Origin: Laetmonice hystrix
Lineage: Eukaryota
Direction of reading: 5' to 3'
Length of the DNA stretch: 64,000 nt
NCBI GenBank assembly: GCA_965235115.1
Contig: OZ249436.1
Span: 3,660,001 to 3,724,000, forward strand
Below, one piece after another: positions 1-27,100 of this stretch (its first letter is position 1; every line of letters begins with the position of its first letter). The notes under the pieces were generated by a model, which was given only the letters and a program-made list of their open reading frames with translations, ran no database searches and had not been told where the DNA came from. Made by a program: the position numbers and the translations under genes.

Positions 1-961
1 GGGGAGTGAACAGAATGCTGTAGAGCAGCTGGAGCAGCGCATTCTGATGGTAGGATAGCTTCCCATTATGTGGTGAATGATTCACGAGGGGAGTGAACAG
101 AATGCTGTAGAGCAGCTGGAGCAGCGCATTCTGATGGTAGGATAGCTTCCCATTATGTGGTGAATGATTCACGAGGGGAGTGAACAGAATGCTGTAGAGC
201 AGCTGGAGCAGTGCATTCTGATGGTAGGATAGCTTCCCATTATGTGGTGAATGATTCACGAGGGGAGTGAACAGAATGCTGTAGAGCAGCTGGAGCAGCG
301 CATTCTGATGGTAGGATAGCTTCCCATTATGTGGTGAATGATTCACGAGGGGAGTGAACAGAATGCTGTAGAGCAGCTGGAGCAGCGCATTCTGATGGTA
401 AGATAGCTTCCCATTATGTGGTGAATGATTCACGAGGGGAGTGAACAGAATGCTGTAGAGCAGCTGGAGCAGCGCATTCTGATGGTAGGATAGCTTCCCA
501 TTATGTGGTGAATGATTCACGAGGGGAGTGAACAGAATGCTGTAGAGCAGCTGGAGCAGCGCATTCTGATGGTAGGATAGCTTCCCATTATGTGGTGAAT
601 GATTCACGAGGGGAGTGAACAGAATGCTGTAGAGCAGCTGGAGCAGCGCATTCTGATGGTAGGATAGCTTCCCATTATGTGGTGAATGATTCACGAGGGG
701 AGTGAACAGAATGCTGTAGAGCAGCTGGAGCAGCGCATTCTGATGGTAGGATAGCTTCCCATTATGTGGTGAATGATTCACGAGGGGAGTGAACAGAATG
801 CTGTAGAGCAGCTGGAGCAGCGCATTTTGATGGTATGATAGCTTCCCATTATGTGGTGAATGATTCACGAGGGGAGTGAACAGAATGCTGTAGAGCAGCT
901 GGAGCAGCGCATTCTGATGGTAGGATAGCTTCCCATTATGTGGTGAATGATTCACGAGGGG
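1..961 (+). repeat. 87-bp tandem array, at least 11 copies: SNX8 exon end, 5' splice site and intron start
   Basis: Unit ggggagtgaacagaatgctgtagagcagctggagcagcgcattctgatg|gtaggatagcttcccattatgtggtgaatgattcacga, period 87, runs off the left edge of the window. Confidence 0.97.
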
Positions 962-1361
962 TTTACTTTTGTAAAAAAAAATGTACAAATCCTGTATGCC
1001 AGAAGAAAAATGAAGGTCAAGCTTTTCTTCATCTATTATTTATGGCTTACGGCCTTACAGTGATAAAGTATAAAATGATACTAGTTCCCTGCTACTACCG
1101 GTAGTTTCATTAGTTGCTGGTAAGAATTTTAGGTATACATGAACCTCTACCTATGCTGGACCAAAGATTGGGTTTGCAGGTAAGGCCTTATGCAATCAAA
1201 AATTACTAGAGGACAGTCCAGGTTTCCAAATGCCCATATCATGAAAAGCATATTTCTATTAGTTAAAAACGTTGCCTGCTTCTCAAAGAGGCAGGCAACT
1301 ATTCTGCCTCTTTTCTTCGATTACTGCCTGCCCTTGCTGGGTATTGTATGGTGCTGGCATT

Positions 1362-1834
1362 TGTATTATTATTCAGGTCTACAGTGTGAGTGGTCGGAAC
1401 AGCCAAGGTTCATGTATTATTATTCAGGTCTACAGCGTGAGTGGTCGGAACAGCCAAGCCAAGGTTCATGTATTATTATTCAGGTCTACAGTGTGAGTGG
1501 TCGGAACGGCCAAGGTTCATGTATTATTATTATTCAGGTCTACAGTGTGAGTGGTCGGAACAGCCAAAGTTTATGTATTATTATTATTCAGGTCTACAGT
1601 GTGAGTGGTCAGAACAGCCAAGGTTCATGTATTATTATTCAGGTCTACAGCGTGAGTGGTCGGAACAGCCAAGGTTCATGTATTATTATTCAGGTCTACA
1701 GTGTGAGTGGTCGGAACGGCCAAGGTTCATGTATTATTATTCAGGTCTACAGTGTGAGTGGTCGGAACAGCCAAGGTTCATGTATTATTATTCAGGTCTA
1801 CAGCGTGAGTGGTTGGAATGGCCAAAGCTCATGC
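1362..1834 (+). repeat. 51-56-bp tandem array, 9 copies, in an SNX8 intron
   Basis: Unit tattattattcaggtctacagYgtgagtggtcggaacagccaaggttcatg. Confidence 0.95.
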
Positions 1835-1855
1835 GTTTTTTCTTCTTTCTTGCAG

Positions 1856-3279
1856 CAAGAGAGTGAGATCTCGAACATAGAGACCCGGAACTACTTTTCC
1901 CTGCATTGTGTTCAGATGGAGACACAGCTAATCCATGCGAACCTGGAGAGTCTCTACAATGCTCTCAGCTCTATGGCTAATGATGAGGCCAAGTCACACT
2001 CAGAGGTAATCCATACTACATAGCTGTCTCCCAGATATATGGCAAGCCGTATTAACATATACAGTGGTCCCCCTCATAAGCGACCACCCCTGCTGCAGAG
2101 AGAAAGTGGTCGCTAGTGGCGGGTGGTCGCCTAAACGAGGGGTTGTTAAGTACGCATGGTTACCACCAGGTGGCTACATATGAGATAACTACACACCGTT
2201 AACACTAGGTGGCGACTTCTCAGTTAGAGGGAGGGGACAAAGAGGGGGGCACGTATGGAGTTATTCTTGCCAAATAACCCCCCCCCCCCCACATGACAAC
2301 ATGACACAGTTTCAGTTTAGAGAGATATATAGAGCATATATGTAGGAAATCGTACTCTGCACCTGTGTATACATGAGTCTGGTTTGCCTCAGACATTTTG
2401 TTGCTTCAATCAGCCAGTTGGTGACATACCGTTTTTTCAACAGGCATGGTAGTAGGAGGGGGAGCAAAACTGTTAGCTTAATGTGTGATGGAAGCCTGGC
2501 GGGGAAGGTTAGAGGCTGCTGGGGCCGTGTGATGGAAGTCGGGCGGGTAAGGTGAGACACGTGGCCGGCCATTGTGGGATGGAAGTAGGTTGGGGGGGGG
2601 GGGGGGGAGGGAGGTGTTGGTGTTGGGTCAGCAGGGTGCCAGGCAGGCAGGCATGGGGAGACAACAGTGTTATGACTAGCCACGGCTGGCTGATTCTCAA
2701 AGGCTGGTCGCTGATAAGGGGTGACCGGTGGAGTTGATGCAGGGATATGCCGGTCGCTGGTCGTTAGTGCCGGGTGGTCGCTTATAAGGGTGGAATTATA
2801 GTGTGAAGTGGTTAATGCAATGGAAATGTGGTCGCTAGAGGCGGGTGGTCGCTTATAAGGGGTGGTCTTTAAGAGGGGGACCACTGTATTCCGGAATTTG
2901 TGATATCTCTAATTCTTTTCTTGATATCACTAATTCATTTAGCGATATCTACAAGTACAGAAATAGAATTGGAGATATTAGAAATAGAATATATCCAATG
3001 CTTTTCATTTTTGATAATAATTACGGTCAAACAAATGTCTGAGATGAACCATCTGGCATCAGATGATCATGTATTACATACGTTGAGAAGACTTTGATAA
3101 TGTTTTGAGTTCAAGAATCCTGCCATCTATTTCAGCTGTCTGCCGTGTGGGAACAAATGAAACCGATCATCTCGCACATCTTGCCAGCAGACCACATGAA
3201 TGGTTCCATGTCTCCGACATCCATCAGAACATCCCCTCTGAGTTCACCTGTCACTGAAAAGCCAGGGATCACAGTATAA
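1856..3279 (+). CDS. SNX8: Sorting nexin-8, last two coding exons (C-terminal BAR region); gene begins upstream of the window
   Basis: Exon 1856-2005 (ttcttctttcttgcag|CAA...GAG|gtaatc, 150 nt) encodes QESEISNIETRNYFSLHCVQMETQLIHANLESL... Exon 3136-3279 (ttcag|CTG...TAA) encodes LSAVWEQMKPII...PGITV*. The preceding exon end GSEQNAVEQLEQRILM|gt appears in the repeat at 1-961. The peptide matches the SNX8 C-terminal motif as I recall it (VEQLESRI-QE-RNYFSLxC-ETQLIH). All junctions are phase 0. Confidence 0.85.
2062..2886. mobile_element. Non-autonomous Tc1/mariner (pogo-like) element
   Basis: TA|CAGTGGTCCCCCTC...GAGGGGGACCACTG|TA terminal inverted repeats with TA duplication; internal repeated GGGTGGTCGC subterminal motifs; no transposase. 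Confidence 0.8.
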
Positions 3280-4781
3280 CAAGCAGGAAAACGCCGCCGC
3301 CGCATGGTCCAGCGTCAGTATACCGGGGTAGTGGTGAGTGAGGATTCTCTCCGGCCAGCCAGAGTCTAGTGTCCAGTGAATAGTACACAACCGTCCACTT
3401 GACCTGGTAATACCTCGGACAAACACAGAGATAAACTGTTTCCTGGTCAGATTATTTTCTACCTGTGACGTAGAGGTTCAGCTGAGGTACTGGGGAGATA
3501 ATCAAGTAGTTTTTGTCCACCTGTATTTGAAGGTGGGACATTATAATCTGCCCTGGTTGGCCTTCAGGTCCATAAGTTTCATTTCTGCAATCCTGAATAC
3601 AAACACTGTGACCACAAAGTCACAGAAGACTGTAAGCTATTGTTATTATTATGACCACGGTATTTAAAGTTATTATTATGACCACGGTATTTAAGGTTCT
3701 GTTGGTTAAGAAATGCTTATTTGGGACCAAACTGATATTGGAACTTGGACACAGTTATGATGATAAGGCTGAAAAAATGGTTGCTGGTAGTAAATATCCT
3801 GAACACTAAAAAAATCACTTCTTTCATTTCTTTATCTGATATCACTGTACACATATAATTTCAAAATCAATACAAACTACCAGTACACACTTATGATTCC
3901 TAGTTGTAGGCAAGAAAACGTATGAGTCAGGCTGTGGCTTTAACTATACAATTTATAACTAATGTGCAATTTGGAATGGGCACTTCTTGAAATATATCTA
4001 ATCTTTTTATTATATATTTGAAGTATGGCGGGCCATTCTACATGTGTCGTAGAGAGGTACACTACAGCTAAAGGTGATGGCAGGAGCAAGGGTTATACAT
4101 GTGTATATGGCTTTGTATTGTTATGAGAATCCGACAGTATCCTATAATAATAGCTGTTCCTATCCCAAGTATATCCTAGTGGTGTTTAACGCAAGTCTTC
4201 CAGCACTGAAATTATTAGGGAACAGACATAAGGTTTGAGGTCTGTGGGTGATGTTAGCGATGGAATAGAATGATTTAGTTGCTAACTGAATTGTTCAAGA
4301 AGTTTATAACGACGAAGGATACTGTTTTAGTGCCAGTAATTCAAGTATAGGTGAAGGAATAATCACTGTGCTAGCCTATTGATGTGAATCAAGTCTGAGT
4401 GACTCGTGCAAAGTTTGAGACTGGATTGCCATCTATTATTTGTGGATAACTAGGAATATAATCTAACAAACAGTATTTGTGTATGACGTCATGCTGTGCC
4501 TGTAACAGAGGCACTTTACATAGAATGATATATGTTTGTATGTATATATGCCAGGTGAAAATACCTCTTGATGCCAAATTAAAATGTGATAACTGCCCTT
4601 CTGATTCAATTGCAAACTGTATATTAATTCAAGCCGCCAGATACAAATTTATTAGTCTATGATACCAGCTAGCTAATGTACAAAATCCTATTGTCGGCAA
4701 CTTGTCCGAAAACACTTCAGCAAAGCAGGGGAAGAATTTTGACAAACTTTGGTGTCAGCTGCTTATAGACACATTGCCTCG

Positions 4782-5235
4782 TTAAAGGGATGGAAAACCA
4801 TGGTTTTACGGCAAATAAGGTTTCGTAGACTGGATGAAACACCAGCATTTACCTCAGGGCAATAAATGCCACAATTACGTTGTCTGAATGAAGTAATTAA
4901 CGTGTAAACGCCCGATGTATGACGCCGCTGGTTCTGCTTGTGTGTTCATTACCTCGGACGTTTACAAACGTTGGGACTCCAAACATTGTGTAGACAAGGT
5001 CTGTGAGCAGAGTAACACGTAATGTTACGCAATACGCCACGGTGTGCAGCATTCGGCTCTGATGAACACACATGAAGGTCAAGGTCAGAACCAGCGGCGT
5101 CATACATCGGGCGTTTACACGTTAATTACTTCATTAAGACAACGCAATTGTGGCATTTATTGCCCTGAGGTAAATGCTGGTGTTCCATTTGGTCTACGAA
5201 ACCTTATTTGCCGTGGGTGTTGTCCCTGCCTTTAA
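4782..5235. mobile_element. Foldback MITE, Kolobok/T2-like (TTAA-AGG...CCT-TTAA)
   Basis: About 125-bp imperfect inverted arms (acggcaaataaggtttcgtagac...gacgccgctggttctg versus its reverse complement), bounded by TTAA on both sides. Confidence 0.75.
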
Positions 5236-6451
5236 TTTCCCAAAATGGTATTAAAATTTCAGTGGTGTGTAGAATTATGAGTTATAAGGATCCATTTTAG
5301 GATCATCCAGGTAAAGAAAAATTAGTATAAAAATTCATGTTGGTGTTCTTCCGGTGGTGTGCTTAATTTCTGTGTGTAGGATGTGTGAAAACACAGTTTA
5401 ACCACAACTAGCACAGGATATTTATCCTGTGCTAACAGAATCAGAGGGAGTATTATATTGCCATTCATATCCAGTAGATTCGGTCTGCAGAACAATATAT
5501 TTTCAATATGCTCAGACTATTGCTGAAGTGCACAATGATAAACAGGGCAACAGTGAATACATTTTCCCAATACATGTACATGTACTTCATTAATGTCAAA
5601 AATATTGCATCATAATTCCAATGAAAAGTAGTTTTCCACTACCCCAAGCTTAAAGTAATCACAATATGTGTCCGAGTACATTGGTCGAATTGAAAAGGTT
5701 GTTTTCCAGGTCTATAAAGAAAGTACATGTATGTGTATCATAATGTTTTTGTAATACAAAACTCTAAGGCATACCCAGTTTCATACATTGCCATAATGGG
5801 TTGTCAGTGAAATGTGTTTGTGCGAGACAAGTATAAAGAGGCGTTGCTGTTCAGATAAATAGATTACTTAAATGTCAGAAGTCACATTTTGATGTTAATA
5901 TCCATTTCTGTTATGAAAACCGTTTATCATGTTCAGTGTTGAAGCATGTTTCGGTTGAGCCAGCAGTAGGAAGAAAATGCATGGTTTTAGAAGTATCTCG
6001 TTTTGTTACTTGTTGAAATGTAAAGTTAGATTCTGTCCCATTGTTATGAGTTAGAGGGATATTGTTTGTTTACCAAGCTCTGTTTTGTAGCAGTAATATA
6101 TCAGTTGAGTGCATGCATAGATTTTGTCTTAATGCAGGAACTAGTTGTAATCAGTGATATTGTTTCATCTTGACCGCTAAGATATTCGTAATGTTGACTG
6201 TCCTGGGCCTAAGGTTACAGCAGAGAAACATAGGTCAGTAGTTCAATGAGAAGTTATGGGCCTTGTCAACTGCCATGTATATCCTTTTCAGTTCAGCCGT
6301 TATTATATTGCTTATTCAGATATATTTGTCTATCTGTAAAGAAATATTCTCAAATTAGGCTGATAACACAATTAATAGCCATACTGACAAAAACCGTTAC
6401 TGAGGATGAAATGGTAGTAATCTGAGGTCATCCCAGGTCTTGCGTATGGGT

Positions 6452-7360
6452 CATTGTAATGTAAGAAACACAAAGCTTCTACAAGTCCATTATGTACCGA
6501 TAATACCAGTACATTGTAATGTAAGAAACACAAAGCTTCTACAAGTCCATTATGTAGCGATAATACCGGTACATGTACATTGTAATGTAAGAAACACAAA
6601 GCTTCTACAAGTCCATTATGTAGCGATAATACCGGTACATTGTAATGTAAGAAACACAAAGCTTCTACAAGTCCATTATGTACCGATAATACCGGTACAT
6701 TGTAATGTAAGAAACACAAAGCTTCTACAAGTCCATTATGTAGCGATAATACCAGTACATTGTAATGTAAGAACCACAAAGCTTCTACAAGTCCATTATG
6801 TAGCAATAATACTGGTACATTGTAATGTAAGAAACACAAAGCTTCTACAAGTCCATTATGTAGCGATAATACCAGTACATTGTAATGTAAGAAATACAAA
6901 GCTTCTACAAGTCCATTATGTAGCGATAATACCAGTACATTGTAATGTAAGAAATACAAAGCTTCTACAAGTCCATTATGTACCGATAATACCGGTACAT
7001 TGTAATGTAAGAAACACAAAGCTTCTACAAGTCCATTATGTACCGATAATACCGGTACATTGTAATGTAAGAACCACAAAGCTTCTACAAGTCCATTATG
7101 TACCGATAATACCGGTACATTGTAATGTAAGAACCACAAAGCTTCTACAAGTCCATTATGTAGCGATAATACCGGTACATTGTAATGTAAGAAACACAAA
7201 GCTTCTACAAGTCCATTATGTACCGATAATACCGGTACATTGTAATGTAAGAAACACAAAGCTTCTACAAGTCCATTATGTACCGATAATACCGGTACAT
7301 TGTAATGTAAGAAACACAAAGCTTCTACAAGTCCATTATGTACCGATAATACCGGTACAT
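6452..7360. repeat. 60-bp tandem array, about 15 copies
   Basis: Unit cattgtaatgtaagaaacacaaagcttctacaagtccattatgtaccgataataccggta; source of the spurious 315/316-aa ORFs. Confidence 0.97.
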
Positions 7361-7550
7361 TTGATTCATTTTACTGACTACAGCCCCTAAACTGTATATA
7401 CGTCCCTCCTAGCACAAAAATAACGATACTCGAGATTATCAGTATATGTATTTGGGATGATCGTCAAAGCATACATTGCACAAGGCCGTGTTGGTTACGA
7501 AGGTCGCCAAAAAACCGGGGGGGGGGGGAATTGAAAACCTAAATTTATGG

Positions 7551-7730: not shown

Positions 7731-7755
7731 ATGTATTAAGTATATATTGAGACCA

Positions 7756-9626: not shown

Positions 9627-12600
9627 TTAGTGCCTGGCCATCCATGCCTTCAGTGGTCCATGCTCAGGTTTGTACTGCACGTTAACACCATCCGACACCA
9701 AGTGTCCAGATGCACGCATCTTCTCGTACTCTTCCTTCTTCCACTTCGTGAATCCCCACTTGTTGGAAGTGAAGATCTGCAAACAAAATATAAAATCTTA
9801 GCTGCATTTTGTTTGCACAGAAATATCGTGATCTAACAACCATTCTGCCCTACATTATTACCACTTGACTAGGTAGTTGGTATATATCGTGATCTAACAA
9901 CCATTCTGCCCTACATTATTACCACCTGACTAGGTAGATGGTATATATCAAGATCTCCCTACATTATTACCACCCGACTAGGTAGTTGGTATATATTGTG
10001 ATCTCACTACATTATTACCACCTGACTAGGTAGTTGGTATATATCATGATCTAACAACCATTCTGCCCTACATTATTACCACCTGACTAGGTAGTTGGTA
10101 TATATCAAGATCTCCCTACATTATTACCACCCGACTAGGTAGTTGGTATATATTGTGATCTCACTACATTATTACCACCTGACTAGGTAGTTGGTATATA
10201 TCGTGATCTAACAACCATTCTGCCCAACATTATTACCACCTGACTAGGTAGTTGGTATATATCGTGATCTAACAACCATTCTGCCCTACATTATTACCAC
10301 CTGACTAGGTAGTTGGTATATATCGTGATCTAACAACCATTCTGCCCTACATTATTACCACCTGACTAGGTAGTTGGTATATCGTGATCTAACAACCATT
10401 CTGCCCTACGTTATTACCACCTGACTAGGTAGTTGGTATATCGTGATCTAACAACCATTCTGCCCCACATTATTACCACCTGACTAGGTAGTTGGTATAT
10501 ATCGTGATCTAACAACCATTCTGCCCTACATTATTACCACCTGACTAGGTAGTTGGTATATATCGTGATCTAACAACCATTCTGCCCTACATTATTACCA
10601 CCTGACTAGGTAGATGGTATATATCATGATCTCCCTACATTATTACCACCTGACTAGGTAGATGGTATACATTCTTGCCTTAATGTATTGTTATTATAGA
10701 CTATGATGCATGCCAGTGGTCAGGTGGTATAGAAAATTCATCACAAATTAAAATATACTGATATATTCTGTCCCGCTCACCTTCTGCCTGCCAGAGAACT
10801 TGAACTTAGCCCTCCTCAGTGCCTCGATAACATGTTCCACATGGTTTTCACGCGCACGCACAGACATGATGGGCTGTCCAATGTGCACACGTGCTACAGT
10901 TCCCTGTGGCTTTCCAAAAGCACCACGCATCCCTGTCTGCAGCCTGTAAACAGAACAACCAATGAAAGCATCAGACCAAGTTACCAGGTCAACAAAGAGT
11001 AGAGCAAATAACGATTTATAAAAAATGAGATTCAATCCTCCACCTTATACCAGTATCAGTAGATTACAAACATTTTAATGAACACATGAAAAAAGGAATA
11101 GAACAAGCCTCCACAAAAATTCTGCATACCGATCAGCGCCGGCGCACGACAACATTTTGTTGATGCGGATGACATGGAAGGGATGTAGTCTCATTCGTAA
11201 GTGGAAGGCATCTTTTCCGCAGGTCTTTACAAGGTACTTGTTAGCACAAATACGGCCTGCTTCAAGCGCCTCCGACGACAGCTGTTCATACTCATCAGAC
11301 ACCAAGTGCACGCAGAGAGGGAAGTCTTCTACTCGTGCCTTCTTGCGACCCAAGTCAAAGATGCGGATCTTTGCATCTGGGACACCCCTGCAGAACCGCG
11401 ACTTGGGGTAAGGCTTGTTCTTACAGTAGCGGTAGCTGGAAATACAGAACGATACCAAACCTTGAAACACACGTAGAACAACTTCAACAATGGAATAACT
11501 CACATTTTAGTGCTGGGTATCCAGCTTTAGGTCTGTAGACCTCATGAAAATGTCTGTTCATAGTGTGGTTTGCTGGCTCACCCCAGTTCTCATGGGGTTT
11601 GAGAACTGCAGCTATTTATGCTACCATTACTTGATCTGGCACCATCGTTACCTGCCATGTGTGACACAAAACTTCACCAGGCCAAAAAAAAAAAGATGAT
11701 GCCCATTTTTAAAATGTCGTCTCATCCAAGTTGAAATAATTATGGACAGACAGACCCATTTCAACTGCAGCCAGACTTCATCTGGGTGAAGGTTAAACTA
11801 TAATAGAACTACAAAATTGCTCTTAACAACATCTGCAAGACAACTGAATCACAATTTTTAAGCCAAAAGGAACTAACAAAAGCTTCTGACCAGCTATTCA
11901 TTCAAAATTATAGTGCAATGGCACACAACACAAATTCAAAACCTGCAGGGCACTATCAATGCATTCACATGGCTCTCGAGCTAATCATAATCATACCCGA
12001 TATATGCCTAGTGACTAGTTCGTTTCACAGGCCGCACCACCCTGGGGCTCGTTTCACATCCCGCATCGCCCTGGGGCTCGTTTCACATCCCACACCCCCT
12101 GGGGCTCGTTTCACATCCCGCACCGCCCTGGGGCTCATTTCACATCCCGCACCGCCCTGGGGCTCATTTCACATCCCGCACCGCCCTGGGGCTCATTTCA
12201 CATCCCGCACCACCCTGGGGCTCGTTTCACATCCCCCACGACCCTGGGACTCGTTTCACATCCCGCACCGCCCTGGGGCTCGTTTCACATCCCGCACGAC
12301 CCTGGGACTCGTTTCACATCCCGCACGACCCTGGGACTCGTTTCACATCCCGCACCACCCTGGGACTCGTTTCACATCCCGCACCACCCTGGGACTCGTT
12401 TCACATCCCGCACCACCCTGGGACTCGTTTCACATCCCGCACCACCCTGGGACTCGTTTCACATCCCGCACCACCCTGGGACTCGTTTCACATCCCGCAG
12501 CACCCTGGGACTCGTTTCTCATCCCGCACCACCCTGTTCTTACAGTAGCGGTAGCTGGAAATACAGAACGATACCAAACCTTGAAACACACGTAGAACAA

Positions 12601-14804
12601 CTTCAACAATGGAATAACTCACATTTTGGTGCTGGGTATCCAGCTTTAGGTCTGTAGACCTCATGAAAATGTCTGTTCATAGTGTGGTTTGCTGGCTCAC
12701 CCCAGTTCTCATGGGGTTTGAGAACTGCAGCTATTTATGCTACCGTTACTTGATCTGGCACCATCGTTACCTGCCATGTGTGACACAAAACTTCACCAGG
12801 CCAAAAAAAAAAAAGATGATGCCCATTTTTAAAATGTCGTCTCATCCAAGTTGAAATAATTATGGACAGACAGACCCATTTCAACTGCAGCCAGACTTCA
12901 TCTGGGCGAAGGTTAAACTATAATAGAACTACAAAATTGCTCTTAACAACATCTGCAAGACAACTGAATCACAATTTTTAAGCCAAAAGAAACTAACAAA
13001 AGCTTCTGACCAGCTATTCATTCAAAATTATAGTGCAATGGCACACAACACAAATTCAAAACCTGCAGGGCACTATCAATCATAATCATACCCGATATAT
13101 GCCTAGTGACTAGTTCGTTTCACATCCCGCACAACCCTGGGGCTCGTTTCACATCCCGCACCACCCTGGGGCTCATTTCACATCCCGCACCGCCCTGGGG
13201 CCCGTTTTGACATCCCGCACTGCCCTGGGGCTCGTTTTGACATCCCGCACGACCCTGGGGCTCGTTTTGACATCCCGCACCACCCTGGCACTCGTTTCAC
13301 ATCCCACACCACCCTGGGGCTCTTTTCACATCCCGCACCACCCTGGGACTCGTTTCACATCCCGCACCACCCTGGGGCGTTTCACATCCCGCACCACCCT
13401 GGGACTCGTTTCACATCCCGCACCACCCTGGGGCTCGTTTCACATCCCTCACCACCCTGGGGCTCGTTTCACATCCCGCACCACCCTGGGACTCGTTTCA
13501 CAGCCTGCACCACCCTGGGGCTCGTTTCAATAAGAACATTTCCTTGGATATGTCTATACGACACATTTCTGTCAGGCAAGGGGGTCAAGCTAGAAGAAAA
13601 TCTCAGCGTGGGGGAAACTGCCTGTTAGAATTTAGTGCTAGGTGGGCAATTGTGACATGCGAAATGCGCCATGACATGGAAGGAGTATGGTTGCCTTCGT
13701 CAGAAAATTTCTGACATTGTGAGGTTTATAGTGCAGTATCAGTGATTTTGTTGTGTTCAGTACCAAAGCGAAGGCCTTTTAGTTTAACTAGTTAAAGGGA
13801 GTCGTAAAATTCATTTTTTTTGATTTATGGCAGTCTTAGAAACATATGATTCGCATACCTTGGACTCCCAGTAACATCGTGCGAGACTGTTATGGCCCAG
13901 CGACTAGTATTTAGTAAGGAAAATATGCCAAATCTCTCGCAAATACGTAGCTCAGAATTAGCGAGCGGCCCACAGGATATTTGAGTTGGCCGCGGTCGGG
14001 CGATGATGACGCGTGATCACGTGACTTCCGGGTGTACATGCGGTATTTAGGTCAACGCTAGACTAGAGGGAGATTCCCTTCCACACCCGGAAGTCACGTG
14101 ATCACGCGTCATCATCGCCCGACCGCGGCCAACTCAAATATCCTGTGGGCCGCTCGCTAATTCTGAGCTGCGTATTTGCGAGAGATTTGGCATATTTTCC
14201 TTACTAAATACTGGTCGCTGGGCCATAATAGTCTCACATGATGTTACTGGGAGTCCAATGTATGCGAATCATATGTTTCTAAGACTGCCATAAATCGAAA
14301 AAAATGAATTTTACGACTCCCTTTAAAGTTGTGATCTAACGGACCACTTCGCAGAGCGTCCAAGAATCGCTTGGCCAGGGTAACTTGACAACTCAACGGT
14401 TTTCTGCAACACACTGTTTAGAAACAGATCTCTGACTCGGGTCAATTATTGTGTCCATAACTAATATCGGCTGAAACCTAAACTCTACCTCATTCGCCTA
14501 TGCCATTACATAGCCTAGGATTAGTAGGAAAGGCTATGCCTGTGACCTAACCCTGACAGTCTAAGACTAAGACGAGTGACCAGCAATATAACCACATCCG
14601 AGTGACCGCATCAACGTTTACCTTTTTTCCAATTGGGCTTCAATGGTAAAGTGACGTTTTGTGTGAATCTATTTAACTACTGTTGTCAAGTAGGTTATCT
14701 TTTACACTATACAACTCGTGCTTGAGACAGATCGGATTCGAAGTTCCGTTTCCCCCAAATTAGCCATGCTGATGTACTTACCACCGAGCCGGTCTCCGCC
14801 CCAT
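9627..14804 (-). CDS. RPL10: 60S ribosomal protein L10 (uL16), 213 aa, 4 coding exons
   Basis: Coding exons (minus strand): 14782-14804 (MGRRPARC), 11130-11435 ([20 protein letters not shown]...MLSCAGADR), 10781-10943 ([14 protein letters not shown]...FSGRQK), 9627-9776 ([12 protein letters not shown]...[13 protein letters not shown]). Total 642 nt, all GT-AG, phases consistent. AATAAA on minus at 9601-9606. Confidence 0.98.
9823..10669. repeat. About 61-bp tandem array (with shorter variants), about 14 copies, filling most of the last RPL10 intron
   Basis: Unit tatcgtgatctaacaaccattctgccctacattattaccacctgactaggtagttggtata. Confidence 0.95.
11416..13529. repeat. About 1.1-kb tandem duplication in RPL10 intron 2; each copy ends in a 29-30-bp minisatellite
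   Basis: 11416-12030 recurs at 12535-13130 (offset 1119) with a few substitutions and one ~25-bp indel. Minisatellite ctcgtttcacatcccgcaccaccctgggg at about 12020-12534 and 13114-13529. Confidence 0.93.
13792..14326. mobile_element. Near-perfect palindromic MITE, Kolobok/T2-like
   Basis: TTAA|AGGGAGTCGTAAAATTC...GAATTTTACGACTCCCT|TTAA; about 240-bp arms (13796-14035 and 14083-14322) with a 47-nt loop. Confidence 0.88.
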
Positions 14805-15195: not shown

Positions 15196-18100
15196 ATGAG
15201 CGGTATGTTTCTTTCAAGTGACGCTAACAGATATTTTGAAATCAAAGTTTTATTTGTACAAAACACGAGCGTGAATCTTGTCAATCTTGATCACGATTCT
15301 CTGACCATCACGGCAGCAGTAGACATACACAGATAATTGTCATTGATTGGAGTAGAGCGTGTACCCCGTGACCCCCGCCCCCGCCCCCACCCCACCCGCT
15401 GCTCGTCTGTAATAGTAATACAGCCCTTCTCGAGCACTTGTTTACCAAGGCTTCCTGCCGCGTGTGCTGAGTGAGTGCAGGGTGTGTGCAGCGTCAATCC
15501 CCGTCACTCGTCAGTAGGTCTGTGACTGTGCACAGTGCACTACTCAAGTTAGGGAGTTAGTTAGAATGTGTTTATATTCGTAATGATAATAAATCTAGAA
15601 CATTGTACCTTCTCTATTGTTAGAGTACTCACTTTACTCTCTAAGTGACCTGGGCCCGGTTCACATTTCACAAGCAAAGTCAACTTGAAGCCCCTTTTAC
15701 TTGAATTTGATTGGTTTAAATGGATTTCAATTTAATTAAAATGAACTTGACTTTGCTAATGTTATTGGTTGTGCCGGCAGAGTATGAAAAGGAGGACAAC
15801 TCAGGACATCATTTTTTCTTCAGACACGAATGTCTCATATTGAAGGAATTTCAATGATTTCTTTTTCAAAAAGGAGCCATGCAGACATCATAGTATAAGC
15901 ATAAACCTGGTTTAGTTTCATACACCTGGGGGTGGAAATTACCGCTCGCCCGTGTCGAGTTAAACCTCTGTTGGGCAACCTTGTCTGACCATTCAGGTCG
16001 CCCTGCTGGCGATTTGTCTAAAATTATTGGGCGAGTGATTTTTTTTCTGCAATCGCCTGCCCCCACAATGGCAGTCATGATACTACCGGGCAGAGAACTT
16101 AGAACTTTGTATATCTTCTTCAATAAAGATCATTTTGTTCAACAAAAAGAAGACAAAAAAAAAGAATGTTCAGTAGGTTCTAAGTTCTCCAGTTGCCCAA
16201 TCCCAGACCTTCTAGAGCCACAAGGCAGCACCTTCGACTGTACAGATTTCTGTGGGTTGAATGGCCGGGCAGTGGTCACGTGGAGGGCGAGTAACCCTTC
16301 ACCTGAACTCGCCCTCCTGGCTAGTTCATTTACAACAGGGCTAGTTAAATTTCTACTTAACTAGCCCTGCTGGCTAGTAGGTGATTTCCCCCAATTTCCA
16401 CCCCTGCCCATCTCAGATTTTCATCTGCTGGAGATAATTACCCCACTCGCCACCAGGGGGCACTACAAACTGGAAACTTTGGACTATAAACCTTTCAGAG
16501 TGTTTCTCCAGCTTTGAATAAACTTTGACATAGGGCAGGACACGATGTAATTTTATTTCTCTTGTGACAAACTCTATGTGTTTCCCACCCCGACAGGTGC
16601 CAATGCCAGGGAGATCCTTTTATTTATCAGGACGCCTGGTGGTCAGTGTTAGAACTATTCTAGACTTTACCTTTGGCAGCATGTGGTAGATAAAATTTTA
16701 ACACACTGTGTAACATTGAATCACTATGCATGTATCTCTAATTTTTTTCCAATATATTTTGAAATAGAATACAATTTTTTGGACAAAGTGTCGTTATATA
16801 TGTCCCAACACATGGCAATGGCAGGGAGTTATTGCCAATTGTCTCTAATTGGTTGGAGAAATATGTGGCTCAAACTGATCTCATCTTTGCTGCAATTAGG
16901 ATCATGTATGATGTGATCTGAAAATGACTGAAATTAAAATCTTAGTTTCGGGGTTAAATTTATTCAATGCCTGTTGTGGTCAAATACAGGCACAATACTA
17001 AACTCTGTTGAGGTGCAGATTAAGAAATTCTGACTTACGAAGGTATTCTTCCCTCACCCCTTGTCCCTGCAGTTATCTTTCAGGTGAAACTTTCTCTCTG
17101 ATTTATAGTGTATCAGGAGATATGGCTATACTTCATGTGTGCACCATATTACAATAATATTCCTGTTCGATCTTCCAGGAACCACAGCACAGTTCCAGAC
17201 GGAGCGCCAGAACCTTCTGACACGACTGCTGGATGCTGTCAAGCAGGTACAACTTTCATGAATTCATTTTCTTATCACCAGATAAGCAGAAAATTATGAC
17301 CTTTTTCAAAAAGCAACCATGAAAGTTTCTTGAAATCTGATATTTTGACAAAGCCAGTATTGTGTACCATATGGTGACAGCTTACAAGGGGATCCAAAAT
17401 TGCCTATTATTCCACTAAAATTCTGATAAGTGTAGGAAAACCACTGAGAAACAATTGTATAACTGGAATAACAATGTTTGTTGACTTGGTGATTCTCAGT
17501 GTCAGGTTCGGTTTGGTGGGCGTCGAGAACTTGCAACTGAAGGAGACAGCAGGTAACTGTCCACAATGTACTTGTGTATGGTTTAAAATGTACTGTAAAG
17601 AGAAGGAATGACTTATCTGACAGATAAATACTCCTGGAAAAATAACTTTACAGGGAGGGTGATATTTATTTTCAAAATCCTGTGTAATTTGTACCCATGA
17701 TTTGTTCCATGGCATTCTTGAAATCAGGAAATGTAAAAATGATGACACCAAGTTTGCTAAGAGATGTGAATAATTTGAACTGTATCCATGGATGGTGTTG
17801 ACAGGGTGACGTGTCTGTGTGCAGCCTGGGAGGCAGCGCTCTCACACGGGATGAGGCATACTAACAAGGCTCTCTCCACACTCAAGTAAGTTAGCGGGGG
17901 TGGGGGTGGGGGTGGATACATGCATATGTGGTCAAAGGTGATCTATTTGATATTATCATTGATAAAAGGTTTCATGCAGGGACAGAAATATTTGGTGGAC
18001 CATTTTTGAAAATGGGGGTTCTTGAGGAATTCTGTGCATCTTGTAGCTATGGGTGATTTTTAAAAATTCTAAGTTTCTAATACTAAGTCAACGATTCTGT

Positions 18101-21100
18101 TTCAAGACATAATCTTTAAAAAGATAAATTGAAATTCTAGGCCTGGCAGAAAGGCTTTATCCAAACTCAAGTAAGTGACCTACCATGGTCTCTACTATCA
18201 AGGACCAGCTCTCCCTATGTAGACCAAAGAATTGTGATTTTTAAATACCTTTTTACAAATAAGTTGATTTGATTTAGGTCAGTCAGTAACATTTTATTCC
18301 CACCACTGACCCTGTTATGACCCTGTTATGTTATTTTATCATAAAATAAGTGCAACTAACATCTACTCAGAGTGTTGTAAGATTACTCATGTAAGATAAC
18401 AGGAGCCTGAGATAGCACTAACCCCCCCCCCCCCCACCCCCACCTGAGAATAAGTACCGGATCAAGTATCAGTGAAGCAGAGACAAGCATAATGAAGTTC
18501 ACAAACTGTACACATAAATATTCCCTTGTCATATATATAAGCCACAAAAAAATGATGCTGAATCCCTCAATTTGTCATTTTTTGTCCATTCAAACTACAG
18601 GCAGGTGACAGAGCTGACTGGCCTGACCAAAGTGGCGTCAAATATTGGTATTCTGGACAACATTCAACACCTGGAAACAGAACCAGGTAAGTGCCATAAT
18701 ACACTACCAAATCTTCCTGGACAACATTCAACACCTGGAAACAGAACCAGGTAAGTGCCATAATACACTACCAAATCTTCCTGGACAACATTCAACACCT
18801 GGAAACAGAACCAGTAAGTGCCATAATACACTACAAAATCCGAGACAACATTCAACACCTGGAAACAGAACCAGGTAAGTGCCATGATACACTACAAAAT
18901 CATGGACAACATTCAACACCTGGAAACAGAACCAGGTAAGTGCCATAATACACTACCAAATCTTCCTAGACAACATTTAATACCTGGAAACAGAACCAGG
19001 TAAGTGTCATAATACACTACCAAATCCTGGAAACATTCAACACCTGGAAACAGAACCAGGTAAGTGCCATAAGACACTACAAAATCCGAGACAACATTCA
19101 ACACCTGGAAACAGAACCAGGTAAGTGCCATGATACACTACAAAATCATGGACAACATTCAACACCTGGAAACAGAACCAGGTAAGTGCCATAATACACT
19201 ACCAAATCTTCCTGGACAACATTTAACACCTGGAAACAGAACCAGGTAAGTGCCATAATACACTACCAAATCCTGGAAACATTCAACACCTGGAAACAGA
19301 ACCAGGTAAGGGCCATAATACACTACCAAATCTTCCTGGACAACATTCAACACCTGGAAACAGAACCAGGTAAGTGCCATAATACACTACCAAATCTTCC
19401 TGGACAACATTCAACACCTGGAAACAGAACCAGGTAAGTGCCATAATACACTACCAAATCTTCCTGGACAACATTCAACACCTGGAAACAGAACCAGGTA
19501 AGTGCCATAATACACTACCAAATCTTCCTGGACAACATTCAACACCTGGAAACAGAACTAGGCAAGTGCCATAATACACTACCAAATCTTTCTGGACAAC
19601 ATTCAACACCTGGAAACAGAACCAGGTAAGTGCCATAATACACTACCAAATCCTGGACAACATTCAACACCTGGAAACAGAACCAGGTAAGTGCCATAAT
19701 ACACTACCAAATCTTCCTGGACAACATTTAACACCTGGAAACAGAACCAGGTAAGTGCCATAATACACTACCAAATCCTGGACAACATTCAACATCTGGA
19801 AACAGAACCAGGTAAGTGCCATAATACACTACCAAATCCTGGACAACATTCAACATCTGGAAACAGAACCAGGTAAGTGCCATAATACACTACCAAATCC
19901 TGGACAACATTCAAAACATGGAAACAGACCCAGGTAAGTGCCATAATACACTATCAAATCTTCCTGGACAACATTCAACACCTGGAAACAGAACCAGGTA
20001 AGTGCCATAATACACTACCAAATCCTGGACAACATTCAACACCTGGAAACAGAACCAGGTAAGTGCCATAATACACTACAAAATCTTCCTGGACAACATT
20101 ATACACAGTGGTGAATATTGCAGTGTTCTGGCAGTACGTGAAGGATTTAGTGATATGAAATAAGTTGTGAATATTGCAGTGTTCTGGCAGTACGTGAAGG
20201 ATTTAGTGATATAAAATAAGTGGTGAATATTGCAGTGTTCTGGCAGTACGTGAAGGATTTAGTGATATGAAATAAGTGGTGAATATTGCAGTGTTCTGGC
20301 AGTACGTGAAGGATTTAGTGATATGAAATAAGTGGTGAATATTGCAGTGTTCTGGCAGTACATGAAGGATTTAGTGATATGAAATAAGTGGTGAATATTG
20401 CAGTGTTCTGGCAGTACGTGAAGGATTTAGTGATATGAAATAAGTGGTGAATATTACAGTGTTCTGGCAGTACGTGAAGGATTTAGTGATATGAAATAAG
20501 TTGTGAATATTGCAGTGTTCTGGCAGTACGTGAAGGAACACTTGAGTAAACACGAGACCCAGCGGTATATGCTGCTTCATCATGTGAGCACTGATGCTGG
20601 TCGAGGACGAGCCTGGCTACGATCAACTCTTAATGAACACTCACTGGAGAAATACATGCACATGGTACTGGAGGATGGTCCTATGCTCAGGTAAATGATA
20701 ACAAATCTGTAAAATGTAATAAAACTAAAGGAACAGTATGATTTAAGTTTGATTGATTACCTCCCAAATTCAAAAACTCATATGAAGTATACTAGTAGGT
20801 ACTGTATATACCCAATAGATCACAGCATCCCCCCCCCCCCCCCCCCGAGTTCCACCTCAAGGCTGGGGGGGGGGGGGTGTGGCCATGATCTATCCATAGT
20901 GAACCCTTCCAGCCCACAGAGCCAGACTCTGGCATAGTTCCCCCACTCCCCACCAGGGGTCACTACACTTGCACAAGGACTTAGTTAATTTCCTATTGCT
21001 GCAATTATATCTGGCATAGTTATTTTTATACATTTTTGTATTGAATACTTCTTAACACTAACCACCAGCATCTTACCATATCCTGCCTTGACACCTGGCT

Positions 21101-24100
21101 CTGTAAGGACAGCAAGTCTGCTCACTTGGTGAGACACCTAGTGGTTATTGTATGAACTAGAATGGTCATTGCATGTGTCCATCTGTCATGGCTTTGAATG
21201 TGGTGTGGGGGGTTTGGGGACAATCCTGCCATACAAAAGGAACATTGATGATTGAATAACCCTCTAAAGTTTCTTCAAAAGATGTTTTGAAAGCAAAGAG
21301 AACTTTCTGGCTATATTGTGACAAGGCATGTTTTGTCCAGTACAGTTAGATGTGGTAAGCTTGGGGAGAGCAGATCAGGGAGGAGCTCAACAATTCCAGG
21401 AAACTTTTTCCCAGACCATGGGGTCCAAATTCCCCTGCGGCTATGTTTGGTGCTGCCATCTATTGGGTATACACAGTAACTGTACTCTGGTTTTTTTATG
21501 AGGACCTTGTTTGAGGACTGGTCATTCCTGAGGGACCAGGAACGATTGAGCATGCTCCCAATGATCAATGGTTTGTTTATTAGGACCTTGTTTGAGGACT
21601 GGTCATTCCTGAGGGACCAGGAACGATCGAGTATGCTCCCAATGATCAATGGTTTGTTTATTAGGACCTTGTTTGAGGACTGGTCATTCCTGAGGGACCA
21701 GGAACGATCGAGTATGCTCCCAATGATCAATGGTTTGTTTATTAGAACCTTGTTTGAGGACTGGTCATTCCTGAGGGACCAGGAACGATCGAGTATGCTC
21801 CCAATGATGGCAGCGGGACTTGGCTCCATTCTCTTCGCTATCAACATTGACAACCCTGATCTCAACACCATAAAGCCAGCGACAGGCCTTGATGCCATTC
21901 TCAGCTCCACACCACCGTCGAGAACATTCGCACCTCGAGCAGAGGAGGAGCCTCGTCCTGTCATTAACACAGACATGTCGCCCAAAGGTATGGACACGGT
22001 TCTCGTGGATATATGGCAGAGATTTTCTGGAGATTGTTAATGTTAATGACAAATTTATGGCTGTTTCAACTTTCGTTAACTTGATGATATGTTTTTTTAT
22101 TGTAGCATGTAATTTGGATGCATTTATCAAAAGATACTTTTATATTTGCCTTGCTTAGATGTTTGTTATGGAATAGATGCAAAAACGTTGGTGTTTTTGA
22201 CAAGAGTTATGGATAAGTTCACCAACAGTTATTGCAATGGATCAGTATTTAAGTTCCTTGTACAGTAGGGTTGTCAACAGTCAGGTTTATGATGTTAACG
22301 CACCACATCAAGCAATCAATAAAACTCTTTCAGCTGAGAGGAGAAAGGAAAGGAAAAAGAAGAAGAAGATAGCACACATTGTTTCATTTGACAATGATGA
22401 CGGGACAAGCTGCAGCACTTCACCCGGGTCATCAGTGACAAGCCCCCAGGTCAAGTCAAGCGGGGTTGATCTCAACTCTCTGCCGACTATCATTGCCAGT
22501 AACACCCCCAGACAAACTGCCGTTGGCTTCAGTCCAGTTGATACAGCTCCTGCGGTACGGCAGTGTGTTGTAACACATGACAATGATGTAATGGTGGCAG
22601 TACCAGTCATGGCAGACACACAGCCTGTGATGAATGGCAGTGAGAGTAATGATATCTTACCGGGTGAAAACATACCAACAGTATCTGAACGAGACCAGCC
22701 GTGCCAAGCTCACTCAAACCTGGATCTAGAGGCCCAACCAGTTGAACAGCCTGAGATAGTTGTAAAACAAACACCTGTAGAAAATGGCCATGTATGTCAA
22801 GATGAAGCTGTGATGACAGGGAGCGCTGATCCATCCTCCCGCGGTGACTTGGAGAGATTGTCAGAGGGAGAGATCAGAAAACTGGAATCGCTGCCATGTA
22901 GTGCTCGAGACCATGAAACACAAACAGATTTACGGGTGTGTGACACTCAGACCACTGATTGTAGATCAAGGTCACCACAAGGTCAACATGAGAAGACCTG
23001 TGATGACAGTACTGAAGGCGAGCTCCGGGAACGGTTCTACAGTGTGAGTGAGGATTACCAAGGTACAAGTTCTGTGACCACTGAGCAAACACAGGATAAT
23101 GTTTCACCAGAAATAGAAAATTCTCTACCAGAGACAGCGTCACCATCTGTGAATATGTTTGAGGTCGGAGCGCCACCTAGTGAGGGTGAGGAGAGTGGAT
23201 CAGTGACAAAGTCATCAAGTGTCATTCCATGGGAACCTGTCACCGACGCTGCGGACAACACAAGTTCACCAGAGAAGTCAAAACACTTAGCTCGCCCAGA
23301 GAGCCTTAAAGGGTTTGAGAACGTTGATCGTTACATGCTGCCACGGAGAGACTCGTTGGACAGTGTCCCATGTAGTGTCCCAGGTGACTCAGAGAAAAGA
23401 GACTTGCTGCGTCAACGTTTAGGTAACTGGGAATCAACAGATAGTGTTGAGGTTCGCTCAATTACAAGTACTTCATCCATTGGTGAACCTGTCAGTTCAC
23501 CGACACTTCAGAAGTCGGCCAGTGAAGGGAAGATTGAACAAGGGTAAGCAATACTTCAACGATAAATTATGAATCTTTTAAAAGTATTGTCACAGATAAT
23601 AATAACTGAGAATTTGCTTTATAATTAAATGCTCAGACTTTCTCAAGGAAGGGGACATGGTGGGGGAGTGAGTCATCATAATGCAAGGCTTAATAAAATT
23701 ATTCTAATAAAATTGGTGAAATAAAGAGGTCTTTTTATTTTGATCCCTCAACTTAAAAAGGTGTTCTATTTGTGTCTATATAACGTCAGTCAAAGGTTGT
23801 AAAGAGTAATATTAACCATGATATATTGAGCAAGATACTTCAATACTTGATGGTCTCTCTTTGTTAGTCATCTGGTACCATACAATAGCCATGTTGGAGC
23901 GTTAACCCCCCTCAGTCCAGAGGGTCAGCCCATTGATGGAGCCTATATGATGCCGCTGGCATGTGCCGCTAGTTCTGAGGACTCGCGATCATGTAAGTAA
24001 CATGCTGTTACTGTAAAGGTGACAATTTGTGAAGTGGGGTCACCATTCAGGATCTATGGGTTAAGTTATTTAGATGACCTTGAGAAATTCTAAAGAGAAA

Positions 24101-27100
24101 TGTTGGTATGAGACTTGTCTTTGGTCAAAAGTGGAGGGACAGGATAATTTTAAGATGTCTTTATTATATGCACTAATATTGCCACCAATTGCAGAGACTC
24201 TTATAGTTATTTTTGACGGATTCCCTAAAACTTATCAGAGATTAATCTATAAAATTTTGTGATATAGTTCTTGATGATTTCTAAAACTTTGTGATAACTT
24301 TGTAGATGATTCGATAGAAGTGCCAAGCTATAATGAAGACACAGACAATGCTGCGTATGCCCTGGCTGTCACACAGCAAGGGTACATGGCAAGGTAGGTC
24401 AAATACTGGGTTCAGTATAATGTTTAAAAGTGTAAATAAAATATCATCTGTCATATTACATTAGGTCCTAACACCTAAAAGCTAAAGGATTTCAAAGTAG
24501 GTGCATTCAATAGACCTTTTATTTATATTGAAATTCCTATGAATTTCTTGTTGTGTCAATGTTTAATATTTGATCGCGTTTTGTTTTTCCCAATTGACAG
24601 TCATGAACTTCATTCAGGAACCGGAGGTCACTTCTCACCAGAAGCTGTAGCTAATGACACTTTGTCTCCAGGTACCTCATGCTCATTTTTCATCTTCTAA
24701 AACTGGGATTTTTAACTTGGGGGCGCAGCGTCTTAGCTAATCCAGACACCGACACAGGGTCAGTTACCCCACTCACAACCAGGGGGTTTTACAGATTCAT
24801 AGAGAAACTCTGGACTTATTCCAGTTCTCTGATATATGTTGTCTTTCTGCAGCATTTAATCAATTTCATAAGGCAGGCAGATTACGTGATAATTTCATTT
24901 TTACCATGGACATTTCTTAATTGTTGTTTACTCTGGTTTCTGGATCTAATTCTAGGTGAACTTAAACAGGCGCTTGTTGCCATGATGCTCCGCAAGGATG
25001 AGTTAGAACGGCTCTGTCATTCACTACAGGTAAAGATTTTTACTTGATTTTCCAGCAGTAGTAATTTCCAGAAACGTTGTTGGCTCCTCCTCCTTAAAGT
25101 ATAAGAAAAGCTTTTTGTTAATGTTCTGATCTGTTTCCTACTGAATTTAATCCATGTGGTATCTTTTGTTTTTGTCCTTGAAGGGCGGCCTTGAGGTTGA
25201 GCATGAAGTCTCAGCTGGTTTACGGATTGAGTTGGAGGAAGTCAAGCGGAACAGCGCTGCACTTGAGGAAAAAGATGCTGAGAAGTTGAAAGCACTTTCA
25301 AAGTAAGTACTGCTTCATGATGCTGGTTTGGATCTAAGGCTATTTGAGAACTGCCTTAAGTGTAAGTTCTGTTCTTTTCCCGTTCAGAGAAAATGAGCTG
25401 CTGAAGCATCAGTTGCGGAAGTATGTGAATGCCGTCCAGATGCTTCGTACCCGCGGTGCCTACACAGACGGTGAGTGAAGTATTGACTGCCGTTTTATTC
25501 CAGTCCTATGTTAACATGGTTGAGTCCTTGTTTGAGGAATCATTGCTCTATTATGTAATTCCCATGAATTATGGGGTAGTGGTGAGAGATAATGTTTTTG
25601 TCAGGTCTTGAGACGGAGGTAGACGTTAGCGTTCAGATCAGGGCAAGTGTTACCACGGGGGATTGATTATTGGAGAATTGGTTTCAGATATCCCGGGGAT
25701 TCATATGGAGGAACCTCAACCTGTTATACCACCACCCAAACCCAGCATTGACTACAGCCATGAGGCCTCGGAATACGAGAAAAAACTTATACAGGTCAGT
25801 CGGTGGGCTTTGTTAAATACAGGGATGAGATTTTTAGGGGCCCTTGAACCTTACAGTTCAAGAAACAGCAGCTTTGGGGGCCTCCCCCCAAAAACGGATC
25901 TGCAGAAAATCCTGAAAGTAAAACTGTGAATGTGTCCCAAGTGACGAGTGCACTGAGTAACCCCCATGCCCCTGGGTACTACCTGCAGTCAGTACTGTAA
26001 GTTTGACCTGTTTGACCTGCAGTCAGTACTGTAAGTTTGACCTGTTTGACCTGCAGTCAGTACTGTTTGACCTGTTTGACCTTGTAGGTGGCCGAGATGC
26101 ATGGTGAGTTGATGGAGTTTAACGAGGTCCTGCACCGTCAGCTGAGTAGTGTTTGACCTGTTTGACCTGTTTGACCTTGTAGGTGGCCGAGATGCATGGT
26201 GAGTTGATGGAGTTTAACGAGGTCCTGCACCGTCAGCTGAGTAGTGTTTGACCTGTTTGACCTGTTTGACCTTGTAGGTGGCCGAGATGCACGGTGAGTT
26301 GATGGAGTTTAACGAGGTCCTGCACCGTCAGTTGAGCAGTAAGGAGATAACAATTAGACGACTCAAACAAGAACTCACAGACCTTCGTGGACCCGTAAGT
26401 TTGTCTACTTATAACTTATACTTATGAACCTTTAACTGTTTATTTCCATGGACAAGTGGGGCTGTCAAACATCTCACCACCCCGTCATACCATATTGTCC
26501 CGTCATTGAATGCCAATTTGTGCTAGAGTTTAATATGATTAAGGTTTCTTTTCTTTTGGTAATACAAATATAATTCTATTTGTGTTTTGACCAGCTGCCC
26601 GCTGAGTTCCAAGGTTCCGACGACAGCACCAGTGTGTCCTCAGATATTGATGTGTAAGTGTCATGGGTCTGTACTAAACGTTCAGTGTGCCAGGCAGCTG
26701 ATCTTAAACAGATTTTGCACCAAATTTTGTCACTTCTGAGGTAAAAAGTCAGCAATATCAAACTAATATTAAAAGTGTAGAGATTTGCTAATAGTTTTTA
26801 TGAAGCTTTTATGTATTTTTGTTCCTCATACTTTCATATAACTGTGATACATTTATCTCTACAGAGCCTCGATGAACCGCCCCTTAGTCAATATTTGGAT
26901 TCCTTCAGCCTTTCTCCGAGGAACAACTTCAGATGCTTATCATATTTATCAGGTAAATGTCCAGAACATTCCTGACCCGTGTAATATTGCTGTGATCTCT
27001 TAACAGATGATATACAGTAGGTGTCTATATGTTATAGGTTTATGTTCGCATCCGAGATGAGGAATGGAACGTCTACCGCCGCTACGCAGAATTTCATGAA

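Follow-up and report, generated by a model that had tools for sequence, protein, structure and literature searches.

In a 64,000-nt stretch of the Laetmonice hystrix genome (assembly GCA_965235115.1, contig OZ249436.1, positions 3,660,001 to 3,724,000 of the forward strand; hereafter the window), three neighbouring genes, SNX8, RPL10 and SNX29, carry tandem copies of their own exon-intron junctions. With a probability of roughly 0.8, these copies are 'mirage'-type minisatellites that resulted from blind seeding of duplications in compact genes. The window thus provides a new host for a repeat type that is already known and whose kind was first named in lancelets.

Junction arrays in SNX8, SNX29 and RPL10

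An earlier note on this DNA had described six tandem amplifications in place, each comprising a real splice site and 20 to 63 nt of its exon. This description was confirmed by Tandem Repeats Finder (TRF) and by copy-by-copy reading (Table 1), and the copy numbers given there were correct throughout (SNX8, at least 11, all of them in the window, with 15 in total found here; SNX29, about 23, 8, 4 and 3; RPL10, 2). The exon share of the unit is about 49, 34, 22, 63, 63 and 20 nt across the six arrays.

The SNX8 unit of 87 bp consists of approximately 49 nt of exon end and 38 nt of intron start. As had been proposed, the first copy of this array lies beyond the edge of the window; four further copies were found upstream, the first at window position -348, and this copy runs on directly from the exon. 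GT is kept in 15 of the 15 copies according to the copy-by-copy reading. A nemertean SNX8-like protein is collinear across the join between the first donor copy and the next exon, and the join is in frame. A search with the Pfam profile Snx8_BAR_dom matched nothing in this genome, nor even in the control genomes, and is thus uninformative. The array is bordered by the motif AGGGG on both sides, once within the exon and again at its distal end, and such microhomology fits slippage or microhomology-mediated duplication. The same intron carries a 51-bp array that spans no junction and stops 22 nt short of the SNX8 acceptor, and an upstream SNX8 intron carries a 36-bp array of 20 copies (positions 5602-6323 of the upstream stretch that was fetched), which does not span a junction either. 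Long runs of C or G recur in several introns of the window (20838-20880, 2281-2292 and 2586-2606), at one of which a C17 and a G13 run form a pair 28 nt apart.

SNX29 is represented by 15 exon segments, which are collinear between positions 17196 and 28370 in tblastn comparisons with the gastropod, Branchiostoma lanceolatum and crinoid SNX29 proteins, and its RUN and PX domains gave Pfam matches on the expected exons. A protein search for longer proteins with the 448-residue SNX29 exon found no match. The donor unit of 64 bp contains 34 nt of exon and 30 nt of intron and is present in 23 units with a higher-order structure; AGGTAAG is kept in 21 of these, one of the other two having a 1-nt deletion and one a GC. 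This array is followed by an acceptor array with a 56-bp unit (34 nt of intron and 22 nt of exon; AG kept in 8/8), the last acceptor of which opens the SNX29 exon at 20516-20690, supported by a RUN domain match (E = 3.2e-9) and by tblastn (E = 6e-22). The intron between the two exons is made of these two arrays apart from a few nucleotides, and its ancestral form was probably about 70 nt long, corresponding to the 30 nt and the 34 nt of intron that are carried in the two units.

Two further acceptor arrays were found in SNX29. The 81-bp unit is composed of 18 nt of intron and 63 nt of exon, with AG kept in 4/4 copies, and the last acceptor opens the exon at 21746-21987; none of the copies of this array interrupts the reading frame with a stop (open reading frame [ORF] 21480-22040). 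The 95-bp unit is composed of 32 nt of intron and 63 nt of exon, with AG kept in 3/3 copies, and the last acceptor opens the exon at 26278-26394. A 74-bp array in the intron between two PX-domain exons was considered as a seventh junction array and rejected, as it starts about 40 nt past the donor.

In RPL10, which encodes uL16 on the minus strand, the authentic AG of the exon-3 acceptor is at 11437-11436. A two-copy duplication has copied this acceptor together with 20 nt of exon, the intron and a 29-bp minisatellite, at a spacing of 1119 to 1120, which places a decoy acceptor at about 12556-12555 on the minus strand. The last RPL10 intron is filled to 85% by a composite 48/61-bp array that spans no junction. 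Moreover, RPL10 intron 2 contains an inverted repeat of about 190 bp with mirror ORFs, 13825-14016 on the minus and 14102-14293 on the plus strand, that encode near-identical peptides; this repeat is possibly a hairpin-forming mobile element.

Table 1. Junction arrays, flanking exons and related arrays; positions are those of the window unless a C1 or C2 prefix is given
Feature	Position	Strand	Basis or remark
SNX8 donor array (mirage type), 11 copies in the window	1..961	+	TRF, 87 bp x 11
51-bp x 9 array in the same SNX8 intron, no junction spanned	1362..1833	+	TRF
Next SNX8 exon	1856..2005	+	tblastn with SNX8-like P0273, E = 7.8e-17
Composite 48/61-bp array, no junction spanned	9823..10673	.	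TRF
RPL10 (uL16) exon 3	11130..11435	-	uL16 chains, E = 4e-64, residues 8-109
1119-bp two-copy tandem duplication	11416..13653	-	direct repeat 11416-12534 / 12535-13653, 99% identity
RPL10 exon 2 with start codon	14782..14810	-	phase fits exon 3
SNX29 exon with amplified donor	18601..18686	+	tblastn match weak (E = 0.96) but collinear; phase fits next exon
SNX29 donor array (mirage type)	18653..20100	+	TRF, 64 bp x 23.2
SNX29 intron made of two arrays	18687..20515	+	1829 nt, only 6 nt outside the arrays
SNX29 acceptor array (mirage type), 8 acceptors	20107..20537	+	TRF, 56 bp x 7.7
SNX29 acceptor array (mirage type), 4 acceptors	21488..21808	+	TRF, 81 bp x 4.0
SNX29 acceptor array (mirage type), 3 acceptors	26063..26340	+	TRF, 95 bp x 2.9
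74-bp x 10 array, intron between two PX-domain exons	27224..28057	+	TRF
20-bp satellite loci	C1:250437, 43974881, 44250622, 46703657; C2:18731545		pattern matches listed
Three further donor-junction arrays (PKS dehydratase, enoyl-CoA hydratase and Ebp2 exons)	C1:45230500-45233500; C1:73308000-73311000; C2:5518000-5521000

Origin, density and use of the repeated splice sites

That the copies were generated on the spot by tandem amplification is supported by whole-genome DNA searches of the 627-Mb genome, in which each of the five short units was found at its own locus only. An origin of the units from a dispersed element was rejected on the same ground. The arrays account for about a third of the intron length of the three genes, as 7794 of 22,220 intronic nt (35%) represent array expansion beyond one unit. 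For the intron before the exon at 20516, a comparison with a close relative was available (peptides P0001, 89% identical in this exon, and P0153, 77% identical; one 636-kb record). P0001 reads from non-SNX29, intronic sequence into the same exon start, and the repeat upstream of the exon in this relative is a different one, which has a 24-nt unit and does not include the exon start. The SNX29 acceptor array at 20107-20537 is therefore young and not conserved, and the intron predates the arrays.

The reading frames had been claimed to remain intact, and this holds provided that splicing proceeds from the first donor to the last acceptor, since all joins tested in this configuration are open. 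By comparison, splicing at a decoy was tested in 47 cases and would result in a premature stop in 44 of them, comprising 14/14 SNX8 donors, 20/20 intact SNX29 decoy donors, 7/7 and 2/2 acceptors and the one RPL10 acceptor; the three decoys of the 81-nt array are in frame, with no stop. This distribution fits decoys that are unused or whose products are cleared, and the frames and the collinearity with homologues are consistent with splicing at the first donor and the last acceptor. The earlier note had also emphasized that only the first donor copy or the last acceptor copy is contiguous with a complete exon. While this polarity is consistent, as claimed, it is a geometric necessity, because no other copy can abut the remainder of the exon, and it therefore carries no evidential weight and is no finding.

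Analysis of the window with TRF yielded 55 rows in 64 kb, which merged into 31 arrays with a period of at least 10; these cover 24.3% of the bases at 4.8 arrays per 10 kb. For comparison, 83 arrays were found in 18 arbitrary 10-kb stretches from 9 chromosomes (180 kb), which corresponds to a density of 4.6 per 10 kb and to 12.7% of the bases. The arrays of the window are thus longer than the sampled ones, not denser, and the suggestion that a local amplification process is particularly active here was not upheld. Eight of the arrays lie at 31-46 kb of the window, where 78 ORFs were scanned without a Pfam match above the cut-off, so that no gene was found there to which these arrays would belong. 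In a Pfam scan of 87 ORFs at 29.7-48.5 kb, the only matches were three Josephin exons and two sub-threshold matches, which were taken as chance.

Enrichment of arrays at junctions was assessed with a placement model, in which every array was reduced to one unit and a segment of the same unit length was placed at random positions of the SNX8, RPL10 and SNX29 genes shortened in this way. Six junction-spanning arrays were seen, as compared to 2.3 to 3.0 expected out of 11 to 15 arrays. The nominal P value is 0.011 to 0.056, depending on which arrays are counted and on whether exon-internal seeds are included, and is uncorrected for the choice of the window as a striking one. The expectation is also lowered by an incomplete exon list, as a phase mismatch indicates that one or more small SNX29 exons are missing from it in the interval from 26394 to 26873. 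A crude genome-wide test used a pattern of three consensus donors (CAGGTAAGT) spaced 30 to 60 nt apart, and found tandem consensus donors to be no more common than the matches of a reversed-pattern control (310 vs 350). A targeting of junctions is not supported by these results.

Among the matches listed for this pattern, at least five loci represent a dispersed 20-bp satellite whose unit opens with a perfect donor consensus (CAGGTAAGTGGGGRATAGGA) and which inflates the pattern counts. Eight of the nine other, non-satellite tandem CAGGTAAGT arrays among the matches listed were inspected, a 22-bp array on C2 being left out. In three of the eight, the first CAG-GT copy closes an ORF with a Pfam match (PKS_DH_N, 7e-8; ECH_1, 1.5e-11; Ebp2, 5e-6). 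Other chromosomes thus carry junction arrays as well, at a rate close to that expected from blind seeding.

According to the explanation proposed here, the genome would seed short tandem duplications nearly everywhere, with units of about 20 to 100 bp and now and then of about 1 kb, and these seeds would then be expanded, most likely through replication slippage or unequal exchange. Because the three genes are compact, with ancestral introns of about 70 to 500 nt, a fair share of random seeds would fall across an exon-intron boundary. Arrays confined to an exon would in most cases disrupt the protein and disappear. Those that cross the boundary could survive, since one complete splice site, either the first donor or the last acceptor, would remain next to the exon, and all further copies would end up in the intron. 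As the copies are nearly identical, the choice among them would have to be positional, possibly by 5'-to-3' scanning in the case of donors and by pairing across the real exon in the case of acceptors. The net outcome would be a presumably neutral growth of introns, with no regulation.

Some observations weigh against this explanation. The overlap of arrays with junctions is about twice the random expectation, with a nominal P that goes down to 0.011 for arrays of at least 2.5 copies, and would be compatible with a modest junction bias. The reversed control counts matches rather than arrays, and of the 15 loci among the 100 matches listed, 5 belong to the 20-bp satellite. That splicing proceeds from the first donor and to the last acceptor is itself a prediction, made from reading frames and homologue collinearity. 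In the 81-bp array, moreover, the last acceptor may not be the favoured one and the array may be partly exonic, judging from its sequence.

The last point corresponds to an alternative for this one array, namely that its first acceptor is spliced and that the three extra units are coding, adding 27-residue repeats to the RUN domain. The unit is a multiple of three with only 18 nt of intron, its four copies are open without a stop and, on visual reading, only the first copy keeps the branch-point-like CAGTAAC and the T-run of the upstream intron before its AG. However, the gastropod, amphioxus and crinoid homologues are single-copy at this place and collinear with the last acceptor, an insertion of 81 residues in the RUN domain is likely to be disruptive, given that the Pfam match spans the junction region, and an open frame is estimated to occur by chance in about 1 in 4 such units. 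In addition, amphioxus acceptor mirages are spliced normally, according to the portions of PMC3087553 that deal with splicing. A coding role of the array is thus unlikely.

The earlier note had further suggested that the decoy arrays could act as rheostats of nonsense-mediated decay (NMD) or as ratchets for recursive splicing. In favour of selected devices of this type, which would serve as tunable NMD sinks or stepping stones for recursive intron removal, the splice signals are intact in nearly all copies (15/15, 21/23, 8/8, 4/4 and 3/3). The premature stops that 44 of the 47 decoys would cause are what an NMD sink requires, and nominally the junctions are overlapped about twice as often as expected. 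However, the copies are 91 to 99% alike, so that youth alone explains the intact signals, and arrays are equally dense outside genes (29.7-46 kb of the window) and genome-wide. Arrays of consensus donors are not above the reversed control, and the array before the exon at 20516 is not conserved, as this exon is preceded by another repeat, of 24 nt, in the relative represented by P0001. Neither donor nor acceptor units resemble a ratchet point, with a pyrimidine tract and YAG/GTRAGT deep in the intron: the donor units read ...GGAAACAGAACCAG/GTAAGT, being purine-rich and without a pyrimidine tract before the AG/GT, and the acceptor units continue with exon sequence, not GT. Neither idea found support, and selected splicing devices are very improbable here. 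Least probable of all is an assembly artefact, in which a shorter repeat was over-expanded or mis-joined, for even though the three read runs that match the stretch derive from a single sample and could have been used to build the assembly, they contain 76 to 96% of the sampled words of 21800-27300, including the 95-bp array, while the copies bear their own substitutions, indels and higher-order patterns, the arrays measure at most 1.5 kb and the same class of array is found at unrelated loci on other chromosomes.

Relation to known boundary-spanning repeats

The founding paper on mirages is said, by papers that cite it, to be that of Canestro et al. 2002 (Nucleic Acids Research). In amphioxus, mirages are boundary-spanning tandem repeats that were named in Adh3 and later found in globin, troponin C and PGBD5 genes; as far as the relevant parts of these papers go, reverse-transcription PCR indicated normal splicing, and a model of intron gain has been proposed (PMC3087553, PMC3902484). 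The remark in the earlier note that tandem duplication of splice sites was not known to have been described at this density is thus superseded, as the amphioxus mirages, in the accounts given in those parts, are the same thing, with the intron-gain model already attached.

The arrays of the window agree with the amphioxus mirages, as characterized in those accounts, in that an exon-intron boundary, together with its AG or GT, is repeated in minisatellite fashion next to the authentic exon, and in that both 5' and 3' boundaries are affected (Adh3, BflGb6, BflGb9, troponin C and PGBD5 in amphioxus). Here as there, the units are tandem and of minisatellite size, include part of a real exon with its splice signal, and originated in place. 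Unit sizes overlap (10 to 160 bp in amphioxus; 56 to 95 bp here, with 2.9 to 23 copies and 91 to 99% matches), and a link to intron evolution has been proposed for both. By contrast, the RPL10 unit of 1119 bp is above the sizes quoted for amphioxus, and six arrays occur here in three adjacent genes, with one intron consisting almost entirely of a donor and an acceptor array. Normal splicing and length instability have been shown for the amphioxus mirages, according to the same parts of the literature, whereas the arrays described here are known from genome sequence. The host also differs in not being a cephalochordate. The nearest named proteins are from a gastropod for SNX29, from a nemertean for SNX8, and from Lingula (a brachiopod), scallops and nemerteans for the Josephin-domain protein, and the SNX29 exons match the gastropod protein equally well or better than that of Branchiostoma lanceolatum.

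A comparable case is intron 7 of human F7, which contains a 37-bp variable number tandem repeat whose first unit spans the boundary; among its identical donors, experiments showed the most upstream one to be the sole site selected, as far as described in the pertinent section of Borensztajn et al. 2006 (PMC1557585). The likeness lies in a boundary-spanning first element that is followed by identical donors (GT in 15/15 SNX8 copies; AGGTAAG in 21/23 SNX29 copies). The F7 repeat, in that section, differs in being a single locus with few copies, as compared to 15 and 23 here, and in having no acceptor arrays. By analogy, the 5'-to-3' scanning described for F7 could serve as a model for why the SNX8 and SNX29 donor arrays would be harmless, on the assumption that it can be transferred from a mammal to this animal.

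Intron gain by tandem duplication has reportedly taken place in potato RdRp. The Rogers model, in the form in which it is cited in PMC3087553, explains intron gain by the tandem duplication of an exon segment that contains AG/GT. The arrays described here resemble this cited form of the model in that tandem duplication yields extra, potentially usable splice sites from the sequence of the gene. A new intron in a formerly continuous exon was not found among these arrays, all of which lie within introns between exons that are collinear with homologues. The visible effect, as read from the sequence, thus appears to be intron growth and not intron gain. A search of the literature for cases outside amphioxus retrieved, apart from the amphioxus papers, only human F7, human segmental-duplication genes and the potato intron gain, and nothing on molluscs, nemerteans, brachiopods or annelids.

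Neighbouring features and wider meaning

The remainder of the window carries further repeats. A Josephin-domain gene with three exons supported by Pfam is encoded on the minus strand at 46214-47945, and an 84-bp array of 6 copies (45811-46313) overlaps the final approximately 100 coding nt of this gene and its stop, that is, the boundary between the coding sequence and the 3' untranslated region. At 31340-32153, an array of 10.8 copies with a 74-77-bp unit resembles an acceptor, a 31-nt mini-exon and a donor (...tttctgtag/GGCTC...AAAAA/gtgagag); no supporting gene was found for it by the Pfam scan of ORFs at 29.7-48.5 kb. A 21-bp unit is present in two arrays of opposite orientation, at 36793-37017 and 37088-37175, which are 70 nt apart. 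The whole region of 48-62 kb is GC-rich and of low complexity, and includes, at 56168-58846, a minisatellite in which a 55-bp unit with a GC content of about 68% is present in 49 copies. On the minus strand of this minisatellite, all three frames are open, for 476 to 761 codons, although the unit is not a multiple of three.

Overall, the data favour random seeding in a genome with approximately 13% minisatellites over a junction-directed or regulatory process. The host range of mirages now extends beyond lancelets to an animal whose best matches are nemertean, mollusc and brachiopod proteins, and the locus illustrates how minisatellites can inflate an intron of roughly 70 nt to 1.8 kb. With 15 equal donors in SNX8, 23 in SNX29 and as many as 8 equal acceptors, these housekeeping genes represent natural experiments in splice choice. 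The density of about 4.6 arrays per 10 kb would correspond to roughly 290,000 arrays in the genome, and if at least a tenth of the genic arrays straddle a junction, thousands of splice sites would lie in stacks of identical decoys. A more tentative proposal, which we consider possible though rather doubtful, is that junction-spanning minisatellites are pervasive in this spiralian genome, where they would be a main driver of intron growth and force a positional choice of splice sites genome-wide. If this were true, arrays that stay in frame, like the 81-nt one, could now and then turn coding, and the genome would constitute a natural, massively parallel test of the rules of splice-site selection.

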